A stretch of 49,774 nt of DNA from Bacteroidales bacterium (GTDB taxonomy: Bacteria > Bacteroidota > Bacteroidia > Bacteroidales > JAFGXI01): contig JAMOQL010000120.1 of the NCBI GenBank assembly GCA_027064025.1, positions 1-49,774 of the forward strand. Direction: 5' to 3'. Shown piece by piece: positions 10,506 through 12,485 of this stretch. The notes under the pieces are model-generated. The model did no database searches. It had not been told where the DNA came from and saw only the letters and a list, made by a program, of their open reading frames with translations. A program made the translations under genes and the position numbers. The first letter of the stretch is position 1, and each line of letters starts with the position of its first letter.

Positions 10506-12485
10506 TTACTCTTTACTATTTATTTTGGTTTCTAATTCTTTTATTCTTTGTAGTAATTCACTTTCTCTTCTCGACGATTCTTCTTGTGTAGCCTGCATTT
10601 CTTCGAGATTTTGTCTCATTTCTTCTTCTTGAGCAGATAACTCTTCAGATTGTTGCTGCGATTGTTCCAATAATTCCGACGTTTGCTGTGAAATTTTCAC
10701 AGAAGACAAGGTTGAGGCTATACTTTCGCTTATGGTTTCCATAAATTTTATTTTATAATCTTCAATGGGCTTAAAGGATGCTATTTCAATAACAGCAAAT
10801 ACTTTTTCTTCAATTTTCATTGGGACAATTAACAAAAACCTAGGGTTTGCAGTTCCTAATCCAGAAGATATATTAACATAATTATTTGGTATTTCTGAAA
10901 GATAAATAGTCTCCTTTTCAAATACACAAGCCCCTATTAAGCCTTCACCAAATTGAATTTCTTTTTCTAAGAATTTCTTTCTATCATACGCTACTGCCGA
11001 AATTAATTTCAAAGATTTTTCAGTATCGTTAACAATAAACAAACCACCCTGATTTGCTCCAATATACTCTATCACATTTCGAACAATCGTATCAGATAAA
11101 ACCGAAATATCATTTGAATTCTGCCTCAATATCTCTGAAAATTTAGCTATCCCCTCAGTCGCCCAGTTTCGTTTTTCCTCTTCTCGTTTTCTCTCTTGTT
11201 CTAGTTGGTCTGCTTCTTTTAGATTATCTCTCATTTTTATTAGAGAATGGCTTAAAACATCTTCTTCGTTGATATTTTTGAGATCAACTTCCAAATTACC
11301 CTTACCTATTTCATTTGCAAAACTAGTCGATTTTTTCAATCTATCTATCAAAGTATTAAACACATCAGTAATTATTCCAATCTCGTCTGTCCTTTTATTA
11401 TCGATGCTATCTATCAACTCTCCTTTAGCAATTCTTTGGATACTTTTCCCTAAACGGGTTATTGGCTTTGAAACAATCTTTGATATTAACAAAAACAAGA
11501 GAACAAAGCTTATGAAAAAAGCAAGCAATGCAACTATAATACTCGAGCGAATTAAACTAATCATTTTCGCTGAGCTTTCTTTATTATCGATTTGATATAC
11601 GACAAAAGCAATATTTTTTTCATTAAAATCTTTAATAGGAATAAATGCATAACTATATTTATCTGTACTTTTCAAATTTATTCCCAAACCATCTTTTATA
11701 TTAAAATCTTCTGCGTTAATACTTTGGTTGATATAGGCTTCTGAACTTGCCAATTCTACAAAATCCTCATTAGCCTCTATGTTTTTCTTATTTGATAGTT
11801 TGTCCAAACTATTCTTATCTATATACAAAGCATATTCTTTCCCTTCATGATTTTCAATTAACTCATCAATAAATTTCAAAAAAGGATATTCGATTTGAAC
11901 AGCTCCTATGTATTGATTTGTGTTATCTAATATTGGAGCTACAGCGTTTACAAACAAGCCATTTTGATTTACATCAATACCTTTTACAGCAGAATGTTTG
12001 TTAGATATTGTCAATAATATTTCTGAAAAATCACTTAAATCAGATCCTCTTTTATTTGACCACGTTTTATAAAAAGAAGTTGCTGGAGGTAATACAAATT
12101 GAATCCTAGTTTGGAGTTCACTAAGCTTATTTGTTTTGTCTACTAGAGGACTTATTGTTCTTCGTAAAATTGAACTTGTAGAATCCTGGTTATTAATTTT
12201 TTTTTGAAGAATATATGCCCAACGTACTGAAGGTAATTCAGAAAGCATCGAACTCGTAATAAGAGCTTGTTCTGATACTGTTTTCACTTTAGAATATAAT
12301 AATTCTTGAAATTTCACGGCATCCATAGTAACTCGTTCAGTTTGATAGTCTTTTGAATCTCTAATTTTTCTGAAGATTGCAAAACTTGTCAACAATAATA
12401 CAATTAACACTATAGGAATAACTAGTTTATTTGATATCGAAGATTTAATTTTTTCGAGAATATATTTTCTTTTCTTTTGTCCCAT
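10506..12485 (-). CDS. Membrane sensor: TM, Cache-like periplasmic domain, TM, HAMP, HAMP-like linker, GAF, Q/E-rich coiled-coil tail
   Basis: I moved the start to the ATG at 12485 ([12 protein letters not shown].. followed by a TM helix). The ORF-track start at 12761 would overlap the divergent gene at 12574. HAMP is [36 protein letters not shown]. GAF is [30 protein letters not shown]. The protein has no kinase, cyclase or MCP signalling domain. Confidence 0.8.
   Translation of the reverse strand: [659 protein letters not shown]

Follow-up and report, generated by a model that had tools for sequence, protein, structure and literature searches.

The sensor gene of the window (the whole 49,774-nt stretch of Bacteroidales DNA that was analysed) ends in a genuine, very strongly conserved glutamate-pair helix. 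Judged by column conservation, the functional unit of this tail is a 42-aa motif and not the entire tail. A second copy lies in a PP2C phosphatase encoded in the same operon. Since the conserved helix is common to outputless sensors and to the phosphatase in an operon with CheR-like and CheB-like genes, the motif is likely a modification (adaptation) site of a chemotaxis-like pathway. [quoted passage not shown] The features are collected in Table 1.

Table 1. Features of the sensor locus and downstream operon (positions in the window)
Feature	Position	Strand	Basis or remark
Sensor gene: TM - dCache_3 - TM - HAMP - GAF - motif	10506..12485	-	Pfam + orthologue P0002
42-aa EE-heptad motif of sensor	10566..10691	-	translation, column conservation, profile search
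Motif core, 18 aa	10578..10631	-	three in-phase Glu pairs, conserved Gln/Asn, half-site EEMQAT
Distal helix, 19 aa	10509..10565	-	30% consensus identity after motif; helical in AF2
CheR-like, divergent 'CheR-B' class	9682..10503	-	Pfam, AF2 + Foldseek, motif comparison
CheB-like methylesterase/deamidase, catalytic domain only	9125..9682	-	Pfam E = 5e-46
Small membrane protein with GAF domain, (TM)GAF	8405..9094	-	Pfam
PP2C protein: TM - GAF - motif - PAS - PAS - SpoIIE/PP2C (SiaA-like catalytic domain)	5778..8405	-	Pfam, NCBIfam
PP2C motif copy NEKTANLLSESQAMTTELQENEEELRQNAEEMLSTQEELEET	7341..7466	-	aa 314-355
SiaB-family protein kinase (DUF6272)	5197..5766	-	NF038262 174 bits (cut-off 85); Pfam
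SiaC-family regulatory phosphoprotein	4788..5168	-	Pfam PF09345, E = 6e-41
TerB-ABC(ABC-2) transporter fusion	1631..4765	-	Pfam
Putative lipoprotein X (~306 aa) + secreted Cys-containing protein Y (149 aa)	228..1634	-	

The sensor probably starts at 12485 (659 aa) or 12572 (688 aa); the listed open reading frame, with a GTG start at 12761, would overlap a divergent RlmL-like gene. An orthologue (P0002, 662 aa, 77% identical) has the equivalent gene context and the equivalent ending. Pfam detected dCache_3, HAMP and GAF domains in the sensor and no kinase, cyclase, phosphatase or MCPsignal domain over its tail, and the protein carries no C-terminal pentapeptide. The tail is translated from 10509-10679 of the minus strand as 57 residues with the stop codon at 10506-10508 (the leading T quoted earlier is codon 10680-10682). 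The ATG of the CheR-like gene (10503) lies 2 nt beyond that stop codon, which indicates tight coupling. The description of an outputless heptad tail with CheR-like and CheB-like genes downstream, given in the sequence-only reading, was thus confirmed by translation, Pfam and coordinates. Four Glu-Glu pairs follow one another in the tail at intervals of exactly 7 residues, i.e., in heptad phase; when the tail was shuffled 200,000 times with its composition kept, a run of at least four in-phase EE pairs arose with P = 2.5e-4. An AlphaFold2 model of GAF plus tail (pLDDT 89) gave a single continuous helix of 83 residues from the end of the GAF domain to the C-terminus.

Column conservation was computed on 72 and on 676 unique copies of the motif. 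The core is the most conserved 18-aa stretch within the C-terminal 290 aa (88% consensus identity vs 61% for HAMP-GAF), and in our own heptad reading its conservation extends to positions outside the a/d core. The distal 19 aa are unconserved, so only the 42-aa motif can serve as a substrate or docking element, a role that had earlier been given to the entire tail of about 57 aa. EE was found at positions 23-24, 30-31 and 37-38 in 87, 92 and 59% of the 676 copies, respectively. The E/E pairs are near-invariant among relatives, so that the check which would have told against the earlier proposal, poor conservation of the pairs, leaves it standing. Gln is the commonest substitute at the second residue in three of the four pairs (100, 23 and 50 of the 676 copies at positions 17, 24 and 38, respectively); MCPs likewise carry E or Q at the second residue of a pair. 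The pattern picked out earlier, small-x-x-E/Q-E, does not correspond to the conserved feature. Alexander and Zhulin reportedly derived in 2007 the methylation-site consensus [ASTG]2-x2-[EQ]2-x2-[ASTG]2; neither the tail nor the PP2C coil contains the full 10-residue form, and agreement is limited to two half-sites, SAQEEE and EEMQAT. The half-site form EExxA[ST] is present at motif positions 30-35 in 428/676 copies.

A profile search with the motif matched 3,652 protein clusters, mostly GAF/PAS sensors without an output domain. Among the 42 top motif proteins, SpoIIE was found in 4, and the 25 commonest of their 39 families include no kinase or cyclase and no HisKA/HATPase. Such scarcity of output domains fits receptor-like proteins. 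Searching the PDB with the motif profile returned designed coiled coils alone (E > 0.1) and thus gave no sign of homology with solved structures or with the adaptation helices of MCPs, and we found no published paper containing the motif strings.

The neighborhood was surveyed in 80 Bacteroidota loci retrieved using the CheR-like protein alone. The cluster CheR-CheB-(TM)GAF-PP2C(motif)-SiaB-SiaC-TerB/ABC is conserved across these loci, in the order [CheR-A]-[sensor with motif]-CheR-B-CheB-(TM)GAF-PP2C with motif-SiaB-SiaC. Motif ORFs occur in 74 of the 80 (78/85 of all sequences, i.e., 84 loci plus the window), always inside the cluster, and the association of the motif with CheR/CheB genes is kept in about 70 loci. 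CheR-like and CheB-like genes are thus conserved neighbors of motif proteins across Bacteroidota, and the homologous coil that the earlier reading placed in the PP2C protein is present. The PP2C protein was found in 70/85 sequences; it is the universal partner of the CheR/CheB pair, and the sensor of the window belongs to the accessory, variable part of the cluster. Two loci have lost the PP2C coil but still contain, about 1 kb upstream of the CheR/CheB genes, a sensor with the motif. One reduced locus (CheR-B-CheB-SiaB-SiaC-ABC) had no motif protein nearby. In an independent motif-anchored sample (80 loci, 856 kb), CheB occurred 3 times, where a rough estimate at one gene per genome gives a chance expectation of ∼0.2, and CheR occurred in 5 loci, each near a motif gene. 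Gene linkage alone fits the motif and other parts of the PP2C protein equally well as the enzyme target. In Marinilabilia the cluster is located directly downstream of CheA-CheW-CheW-CheR-HATPase-CheD-REC/CheB. We found no paper linking SiaC/DUF6272 to CheR/CheB; a publication about Candidatus Bacteroides periocalifornicus, which is among the carriers, only counts CheA/B/R/W/Y as motility genes. Culturable carriers are Marinilabilia salmonicolor, Saccharicrinis aurantiacus and Carboxylicivirga sp.

The ATG of the CheB-like gene overlaps the stop codon of the CheR-like gene by 1 nt. Its product (185 aa) has no N-terminal receiver domain by Pfam. In the alignment with the Thermotoga maritima CheB structure 3SFT, the sequences GGSAGS, LHRL and GANRDG fall opposite GSSTGG, QHMP and GMGKDG, and the Ser-His-Asp triad is intact. 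Relatives number more than 5,391; for the best 120, identity is 63-79% and length 184-203 aa (nearly all 184-196 aa, one 203 aa), and all of these 120 are stand-alone catalytic domains with no CheB-CheR fusion among them.

The CheR-like protein matched Pfam PF01739 with 48.8 bits (cut-off 27). The best PDB match of its AlphaFold2 model in Foldseek was Bacillus subtilis CheR 5FTW (TM 0.78/0.83), so that by its model the protein adopts the CheR fold. We compared it with the canonical CheR cofactor motifs AGCSTGEEpYS, the Asp ending beta-2 (ATDID) and CRNVxIYF. The corresponding sequences are PSCFQGAELLSF, QVFYSSPF and LYRNILLRY, which do not match the canonical set: motif I is degenerate and the SAM-ribose-binding Asp at the end of beta-2 is lost. 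This Asp is missing in 69/82 CheB-adjacent CheR copies and kept in 72/73 non-adjacent copies of the loci, the latter including upstream paralogues, canonical chemotaxis CheRs and CheB-CheR fusions. Most clusters of Bacteroidales and Marinilabiliales encode both the canonical CheR-A and the divergent CheR-B, and those of Cytophagales a single canonical CheR; the window has no CheR-A. The neighboring enzyme, named earlier as the one acting on the tail, is therefore a CheR homologue, but a divergent paralogue whose canonical counterpart is missing here, and methylation by it is not to be assumed. Taken together, the sequence-only reading was partly supported.

In the conserved cluster the CheB-like gene is always followed by the (TM)GAF gene. 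The SiaA model covered the phosphatase domain of the PP2C protein with E = 2.6e-47, below the equivalog cut-off, and a SiaB-family kinase, a SiaC-family phosphoprotein and this SiaA-like PP2C are together in one operon. Pfam found HisKA/HATPase in neither the sensor nor the PP2C protein, and CheA/CheW are absent from the window. The TerB-ABC gene follows SiaC immediately in 62/67 loci, and its product is a candidate downstream target of the partner switch. Proteins X and Y, with zero Pfam matches, are kept downstream in 46 and 44 loci, respectively.

From these observations we infer covalent modification of the helix at particular residues, coupling of the sensor to the PP2C protein and an output through the partner switch. 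The tail is one copy of a conserved 42-residue helical module with Glu-Glu every seven residues, directly extending the exit helix of a GAF domain, and the module would be the common signaling and adaptation element of a Bacteroidota-specific chemosensory-like pathway. Many outputless membrane sensors with varied periplasmic domains share the GAF-plus-motif module in the manner of MCPs, and the GAF-motif-PAS-PP2C phosphatase contains it as well. The operon-encoded CheR-type methyltransferase(s) and the receiver-less CheB-type esterase/deamidase may reversibly modify exposed Glu (possibly Gln) residues, and this modification would reset the helix conformation, i.e., provide adaptation. Signals would pass from sensor to PP2C protein most plausibly by hetero-oligomerisation via the homologous GAF-coil modules, possibly together with the (TM)GAF protein. 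The PP2C protein and the SiaB-like kinase would then set the phosphorylation state of the SiaC-like protein, which would control some target downstream; the probable one is the co-transcribed TerB-ABC transporter.

The helix may instead be an unmodified, S-helix-like parallel coiled coil used for signal relay and partner docking, which we regard as rather unlikely though deserving real weight. It would relay GAF changes to PAS/PP2C or to a binding partner, and the CheR-like and CheB-like proteins would act elsewhere or as scaffolds; conservation would then reflect a protein interface (with the PP2C protein, the (TM)GAF protein, SiaC or a possibly inactive CheR-B). The motif does occupy the S-helix position, between a sensory domain and PAS/PP2C, and many copies open with x-[RK]-T at positions 2-4 (QQT in the window sensor, EKT in the PP2C copy), resembling the S-helix 'ERT' (PMC1592074). 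Multi-PAS proteins have the motif ahead of every PAS domain, at intervals of about 165 aa and up to 9 times per protein, a pattern like that of a structural linker unit. Motif sensors are mostly orphan genes with CheR/CheB not nearby, and 5/80 motif-anchored loci consist of a sensor and a convergent SiaC gene without CheR/CheB; the loss of the hallmark SAM-binding residue from CheR-B and the departure from the MCP consensus also suit an unmodified coil. Conservation at S-helix positions g/a/d/e is, however, 4-5 times that at b/c/f (PMC1592074), whereas the f/g Glu pairs and b/c residues of the motif are near-invariant too, at least in our own heptad reading. Moreover, a strongly conserved CheB-like protein with an intact triad needs a Glu-methyl-ester or Gln substrate, and the operon's evident candidate for it is the set of heptad-phased pairs in the motif. 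As an alternative substrate we examined one cluster protein in detail, (TM)GAF, and set it aside because it lacks conserved Glu pairs; a scan of the other operon proteins gave only isolated conserved [EQ][EQ] pairs, none in heptad phase. Relay and modification are not mutually exclusive, since the S-helix of RsbK is itself methylated.

Quite improbable, in our estimate, is an esterase/deamidase-only system in this organism, or one with its methyltransferase encoded elsewhere. CheR-B would be a non-catalytic pseudo-enzyme that recognizes the EE helix and recruits or regulates the CheB-like protein; methyl groups would come from a CheR-A elsewhere, or the CheB-like protein would only deamidate invariant Gln residues (Q21, Q27, Q36). 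The CheR-B class varies at the position of the lost Asp (S/C/T/G/N/H) but retains the fold and the motifs FRDP..W, G.E and RN. CheR-B is alone in the window, in two orthologous loci (L001 and L002) and in the two nearest loci of the CheR scan (L005 and L006), whereas most related clusters have both classes. However, SAM binding need not be lost together with a single ribose-binding residue, and the count of one CheR-like ORF applies within the window alone. Finally, we give almost no credence to the tail being a chance low-complexity or generic coiled coil, or a remnant of output-domain truncation, as its Glu/Gln-rich composition and the designed coiled-coil matches might suggest, for this is effectively refuted by the conservation data, the shuffle test, the 3,652 clusters, the equal ending and operon of P0002, the many independent relatives of the tail-type and the close start of the next gene.

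We return to the helix as an adaptation element. CheR/CheB adaptation is understood almost solely for MCP arrays, and the locus, which is compact and highly conserved, could serve as a test bed: it combines a 42-residue motif whose candidate residues are defined, a small CheB lacking a receiver, two classes of CheR of which one may be a pseudo-enzyme, and a readout through phosphatase, kinase and phosphoprotein. Should the helix be modified, a role would be explained for the genes annotated as 'chemotaxis' in Bacteroidales, Marinilabiliales and Cytophagales that have no flagella, ∼3,650 GAF/PAS sensor protein clusters, the majority outputless, would gain an assigned function, and sensory adaptation would be tied to partner-switch signaling and possibly to ABC-transporter export. 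Tentatively, and with more doubt than confidence, we suggest that the flagella-less Bacteroidota may possess a distinct and widespread chemosensory-type pathway, in which thousands of outputless MCP-like receptors sharing the GAF-plus-EE-heptad helix are adapted by CheR/CheB and signal to PP2C-SiaB-SiaC, not CheA/CheY, controlling the TerB-ABC exporter and two secreted/lipoproteins. If true, this would be a third way, beside MCP-CheA arrays and MAC kinases, of linking many sensors with memory to one output.

Compared with known systems, the motif sensors resemble MCPs in combining interchangeable periplasmic domains (Cache, CHASE3, 4HB, HAMP) with one common conserved cytoplasmic helical module, in occurring often as orphan genes or tandem arrays, in a 7-residue spacing of Glu pairs whose second residue varies between E and Q, in having CheR and CheB homologues within the core operon, and in a segment, EEMQAT, that fits the classical EExxA[S/T] half-site. 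We rejected MCP membership because MCPsignal (PF00015) and the full methylation consensus are absent. MCPs also differ in their signaling hairpin, pentapeptide and CheA/CheW partners and in forming a four-helix bundle, in place of which there is a single post-GAF parallel-type helix. The SiaABCD system of Pseudomonas aeruginosa shares the SiaA-like PP2C, SiaB-family kinase and SiaC-family phosphoprotein in equal gene order; its diguanylate cyclase SiaD is replaced here by the TerB-ABC transporter, its phosphatase input is HAMP alone instead of GAF-motif-PAS-PAS, and CheR/CheB-like genes and additional sensors are found only here. S-helices, likened to the motif by published description, are also conserved helices of the parallel type, some 40 residues long and placed between a sensory domain and PAS/PP2C; their ERT signature, which is central, resembles the x-[RK]-T opening of many motif copies (PMC1592074). 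The EE-heptad core, the best-conserved part of the motif, is not a described S-helix feature, and an S-helix joins two domains whereas the helix of the window sensor terminates the protein.

MAC proteins, reportedly named in 2010, share several features with the motif proteins. They are coiled coils associated with CheB/CheR (PMC6943060; bioRxiv 10.1101/2022.05.07.491037), with heptad-phased Glu pairs, outside canonical CheA/CheW pathways, and their CheB/CheR are either fused (MAC1) or encoded by neighboring genes (MAC2). According to the 2022 analysis, they have never been studied experimentally and contain a kinase (bioRxiv 10.1101/2022.05.07.491037); neither motif protein in the window has one, and the output is a PP2C/SiaB/SiaC switch. 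The EEL-heptad coil described earlier for CheB-CheR-PAS kinase fusions could be verified as an analogous coil on three real fusions of MAC1 type (L085, L086 and L087, from plasmid records), in which seven repeats of S/T-x-N-E-E-L-x precede a PAS domain, as the window-type motif often does. The motif HMM matched these coils with E = 0.005-2.3 in a database of three sequences; the heptad patterns are alike and the scores marginal, and we treat the fusion coil as analogous, not homologous.

The last comparison, made by published description and architecture, is with RsbK, RsbM and RsbY of Bacillus cereus. RsbK is a CHASE3-HAMP-GAF-S-helix-kinase protein that acts upstream of a partner switch with a PP2C phosphatase; RsbM, a CheR homologue from the same operon, methylates the post-GAF helix of RsbK (PMC4574943, PMC12848376). 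The window sensor is likewise built of a periplasmic sensor, HAMP, GAF and a conserved helix, a gene homologous to CheR adjoins it in one operon, and the pathway leads to a PP2C phosphatase and a partner switch. RsbK runs on into a histidine kinase and receiver, whereas the window sensor stops after the helix; RsbM is without a paired esterase, whereas a CheB-like gene is always present here; and the RsbV/RsbW/sigma-B switch contrasts with one of SiaB/SiaC type in which the PP2C protein itself has the helix. RsbK/RsbM is the one case that we found of demonstrated methylation on a non-MCP helix.

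Pfam searches detected dCache_3, HAMP and GAF as the domains of the sensor, and no further domain in the protein or over its tail. The tail carries four Glu-Glu pairs in exact heptad phase (P = 2.5e-4 in composition-preserving shuffles), and an AlphaFold2 model of GAF plus tail, built from an input alignment of 48 sequences, shows an 83-residue helix that starts where GAF ends and continues unbroken to the C-terminus (pLDDT 89). These results confirmed the tail as it had been described in the sequence-only reading. The CheR-like gene (PF01739) starts 2 nt past the sensor stop and shares 1 nt of its own stop with the CheB-like gene (PF01339, E = 5e-46). 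The listed sensor ORF (10506-12761) begins with GTG at 12761; translation more likely begins at 12485, giving 659 aa, or at 12572, giving 688 aa. As listed, the ORF shares 188 nt with the divergent gene for the RlmL/THUMP methyltransferase; a start at 12485 would leave a divergent intergenic region of 88 nt. An RlmL-like neighbour is also present at the two orthologous loci, L001 and L002.

Features of the sensor cluster in the window
Feature	Position	Strand	Remarks
Secreted Cys-containing protein Y, 149 aa	228-677	-	downstream in 44 loci; no Pfam match
Putative lipoprotein X, ~306 aa	714-1634	-	downstream in 46 loci; no Pfam match
TerB-ABC (ABC-2) fusion	1631-4765	-	directly after SiaC
SiaC-family	4788-5168	-	
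SiaB-family	5197-5766	-	
PP2C phosphatase	5778-8405	-	
PP2C motif copy	7341-7466	-	aa 314-355
(TM)GAF protein	8405-9094	-	
CheB-like	9125-9682	-	
CheR-like	9682-10503	-	
Sensor tail	10509-10679	-	from translation; stop codon directly after
42-aa motif, sensor copy	10566-10691	-	
18-aa core of motif	10578-10631	-	
RlmL/THUMP methyltransferase	12574-13758	+	divergent from sensor

The tail segment was matched by 93 of 105 sensor relatives (E ≤ 1e-6) at the same site, directly after GAF, where it is either C-terminal or precedes PAS or hemerythrin domains. When 85 unique C-terminal halves were aligned, conservation was highest in the 18-residue core, with a consensus identity of 88% versus 61% for HAMP-GAF and 30% after the motif; the last 19 aa of the sensor are not conserved. 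Because the core is best conserved and the part downstream reaches only 30%, we take the 42-aa motif to be the functional element. Its consensus starts with N-x-[RK] (72 unique copies). A tail-type subfamily of ~550-aa sensors (P0030-P0042 and P0058) has a conserved C-terminal K-Y-E-[LIV], which is absent from the window sensor and may be a terminal docking peptide; part of this subfamily has a degenerate middle pair (QEANLKQTIEEL).

The motif is widespread. A profile search of 1.84 billion proteins, clustered at 50% identity, matched 3,652 clusters, and 1,473 of these reached E ≤ 1e-10. Each of the top matches contains 2-9 copies, typically one ahead of every PAS domain. Among 42 sampled top matches, GAF was found in 39 and PAS in 38, together with HAMP and Cache sensor domains; SpoIIE was found in just 4, and no kinase or cyclase was among the 25 commonest of the 39 Pfam families. 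The sampled proteins are thus overwhelmingly output-less sensors. The motif also behaves as a repeat unit: many proteins of the P0262-P0285 set alternate motif and PAS every 165-170 aa, P0262 (1989 aa) has nine copies, and P0263 (925 aa) has six tandem copies 70 aa apart with no PAS between them. Across 676 unique copies, EE occupies motif positions 23-24 in 87%, positions 30-31 in 92% and positions 37-38 in 59%, and positions 16-17 are EE in 48% and EQ in 12%; in three of the four pairs, Gln is the most frequent replacement for the second residue. Conservation of the Glu pairs among relatives, the check proposed in the sequence-only reading, was thereby borne out.

To describe the gene neighbourhood, the CheR-like alignment was used as query and one genome per species was scanned, which yielded 80 loci, all from Bacteroidota where the taxon is named (Bacteroidales, Marinilabiliales and Cytophagales). 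ORF calling and iterative profile searches gave a conserved order of [second CheR]-[GAF-motif sensor]-CheR-CheB-(TM)GAF-GAF-motif-PAS-PP2C-SiaB-SiaC. Of 85 sequences (the 80 scan loci, the window and four further loci), 70 carried PP2C, 68 SiaB and 67 SiaC; where these are missing, the contig mostly breaks off within the cluster or just past it. We found 114 motif-bearing ORFs in 78 of the 85 sequences, every one within or adjoining the cluster; the motif is linked to the CheR/CheB-like genes and to the PP2C-SiaB-SiaC-ABC operon. From this survey we therefore concluded that the phosphatase is the constant partner of the CheR/CheB pair; the upstream sensor is a variable accessory of the cluster. 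The PP2C lacks the coil in two loci, with a motif-bearing sensor still ~1 kb upstream of the CheR/CheB pair: at L045 (11660-14440) and L058 (12004-14499) the PP2C motif is lost and GAF is joined straight to PAS, and CheR, CheB and the upstream motif sensor are kept. Two loci are reduced: L048 (3660-10793) reads CheR-B-CheB-SiaB-SiaC-TerB/ABC-X-Y without (TM)GAF or PP2C and has CheR-A on the opposite strand, and L037 (8618-10795) has X-Y-CheR-like only.

Marinilabilia salmonicolor and several of its relatives in the Marinilabiliales have CheA-CheW-CheW-CheR-HATPase-CheD-REC/CheB directly upstream of the cluster. The full Che set precedes the GAF-motif sensor at L047 (554-7131, M. salmonicolor), and the same layout is seen at L029, L030, L044, L049, L056, L059, L062, L063, L065, L068, L071 and L078. 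To our knowledge, the taxa with this Che set are not known as flagellated. A plasmid of Persicobacter sp. JZB09 (L092:1344-11397) encodes a 1065-aa motif protein followed by PP2C (687 aa), REC-CheB (352 aa) and a canonical CheR, and is a third architecture that links CheB/CheR with PP2C and the motif.

Away from these clusters the picture is looser. When five sensor relatives were looked up singly, CheR/CheB lay nearby in the close orthologue only. A motif-anchored sample of 80 metagenomic loci (856 kb) contained CheR in five and CheB in three, each near a motif gene; assuming one gene per genome, a rough estimate puts the number of CheB expected by chance at ~0.2. In the other loci the motif gene is an orphan, belongs to a tandem array of 2-4 sensors or encodes a sensor next to SiaC or other PP2C genes, a scattered distribution like that of MCP genes. 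Sensors with a convergent SiaC occur at L113, L117, L120, L122 and L127, other PP2C genes lie beside sensors at L148, L160, L164, L166 and L170, and L162 has three SiaC genes in tandem. The frequent pairing of tail-type sensors with a lone SiaC-family or other PP2C gene, with no CheR/CheB nearby, hints at a direct connection to partner-switch components.

In the window the cluster runs from the sensor through the CheR-like, CheB-like, small membrane GAF, PP2C, SiaB-family, SiaC-family and TerB-ABC genes to two non-Pfam proteins. The PP2C has the architecture TM-GAF-motif-PAS-PAS-SpoIIE phosphatase, and its copy is a variant motif (...EL-x-ENEE-x-LRQNAEEM-x-ATQEELE...). An E-Q pair at PP2C aa 490-491 (AEKEQRRRG), in the segment that links the two PAS domains, is invariant and was kept in 68/68 aligned PP2C proteins. 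The SiaB-family kinase (DUF6272) scored 174 bits against an NCBIfam cut-off of 85, and the TerB-ABC gene is directly 3' of SiaC in 62 of 67 loci.

The CheB-like protein, 185 aa long, consists of a catalytic domain without a receiver, and its triad is intact: Ser, His and Asp align with those of the solved T. maritima CheB. Its relatives number more than 5,391; among the best 120, identity is 63-79% and nearly every protein has 184-196 aa (one has 203 aa). Because of the aligned triad and the identity and uniform length of these relatives, it appears strongly constrained and is probably an active enzyme. The AF2 model of the CheR-like protein (pLDDT 90.9) has the CheR fold, with B. subtilis CheR 5FTW as the best PDB match (TM 0.78/0.83), despite a divergent sequence. 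Alignment of all CheR ORFs of the loci gave two classes. CheR-A, the upstream paralogue, keeps canonical AGCSTGQE.YS, [AG][ST]D[IL] and CRNV.IYF, and was never adjacent to CheB in the Bacteroidales or Marinilabiliales loci. CheR-B adjoins CheB in those two orders; it has lost the Asp that ends strand beta-2 in 69 of 82 copies, the former Asp position is variable and motif I is degenerate. The two can be compared side by side at L007 (9113-9976 and 9980-10816). In Cytophagales the single CheR is canonical and adjoins CheB, and CheR-B stands alone in the window, in L001 and L002 and in the nearest scan loci, L005 and L006. In class I methyltransferases the Asp ending beta-2 binds the SAM ribose; because it has been lost, methyl transfer by the tail-adjacent CheR-like protein should not be taken for granted.

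The most economical reading, and the one towards which we lean, is that GAF plus EE-helix is a signalling and adaptation unit modified by CheR and CheB types and acting via the phosphatase. The module would be shared within a chemosensory-like pathway of Bacteroidota, the CheR-type and CheB-type enzymes would covalently modify the Glu pairs and possibly the invariant Gln as well, and the output-less sensors would be coupled to the phosphatase bearing the same module and reach an output through it. The main rival, that the motif is an unmodified signalling or docking helix, we regard as unlikely; the degenerate CheR-B beside the tail is to be set against the conserved Glu pairs and the intact CheB triad. 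A sub-variant, in which CheR-B is a pseudo-enzyme and any methylation comes from a CheR-A encoded elsewhere, seems to us improbable, and chance or truncation as the origin of the tail is out for practical purposes. The idea of the sequence-only reading, a tail serving adjacent CheR/CheB-like enzymes as substrate and docking element, holds in the conservation and in the likeness to CheB-CheR fusions. It gives way on the sites (the conserved signature is not small-x-x-E/Q-E), the extent (the 42-aa motif, not the whole tail), the assumed activity of the neighbouring CheR and the central role of the sensor in place of the phosphatase. The locus offers a good experimental entry into an unstudied system.

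The MCPsignal domain is absent from the sensor (Pfam), and the full 10-residue MCP methylation consensus was not found, only the half-sites SAQEEE and EEMQAT, of which EEMQAT fits the classical EExxA[S/T]; PDB profile-search matches to the motif contained no MCP, only designed coiled coils. S-helices, which bear an 'ERT' signature, have a sensor domain on one side and a PP2C, PAS or kinase domain on the other (PMC1592074); many motif copies begin x-[RK]-T, but the defining EE-heptad core is not a described S-helix feature. The three downstream genes match SiaA/B/C-type partner switching, with a TerB-ABC transporter where P. aeruginosa has the SiaD cyclase. Proteins termed 'methyl-accepting coiled-coil' (MAC) have been described in MiST 3.0 (PMC6943060) and a 2022 preprint (bioRxiv 10.1101/2022.05.07.491037). 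Three real CheB-CheR-coil-PAS_10 fusions were retrieved, and in two a histidine kinase follows; the coil of all three, with seven [ST]-x-N-E-E-L-x repeats, is alike in kind and position, ahead of PAS, and the motif HMM matched these three sequences only marginally. In B. cereus RsbK (CHASE3-HAMP-GAF-S-helix-kinase-REC) the post-GAF signalling helix is methylated by RsbM, a described CheR homologue from the same operon, and the module has a PP2C (RsbY) partner switch under its control (PMC4574943, PMC12848376); RsbK/RsbM is the closest analogue with an experimental basis. The principle has already been established by MAC proteins and RsbK/RsbM; the system described here differs from both in its output-less receptors, its PP2C/SiaB/SiaC/ABC output and its two-class CheR set.
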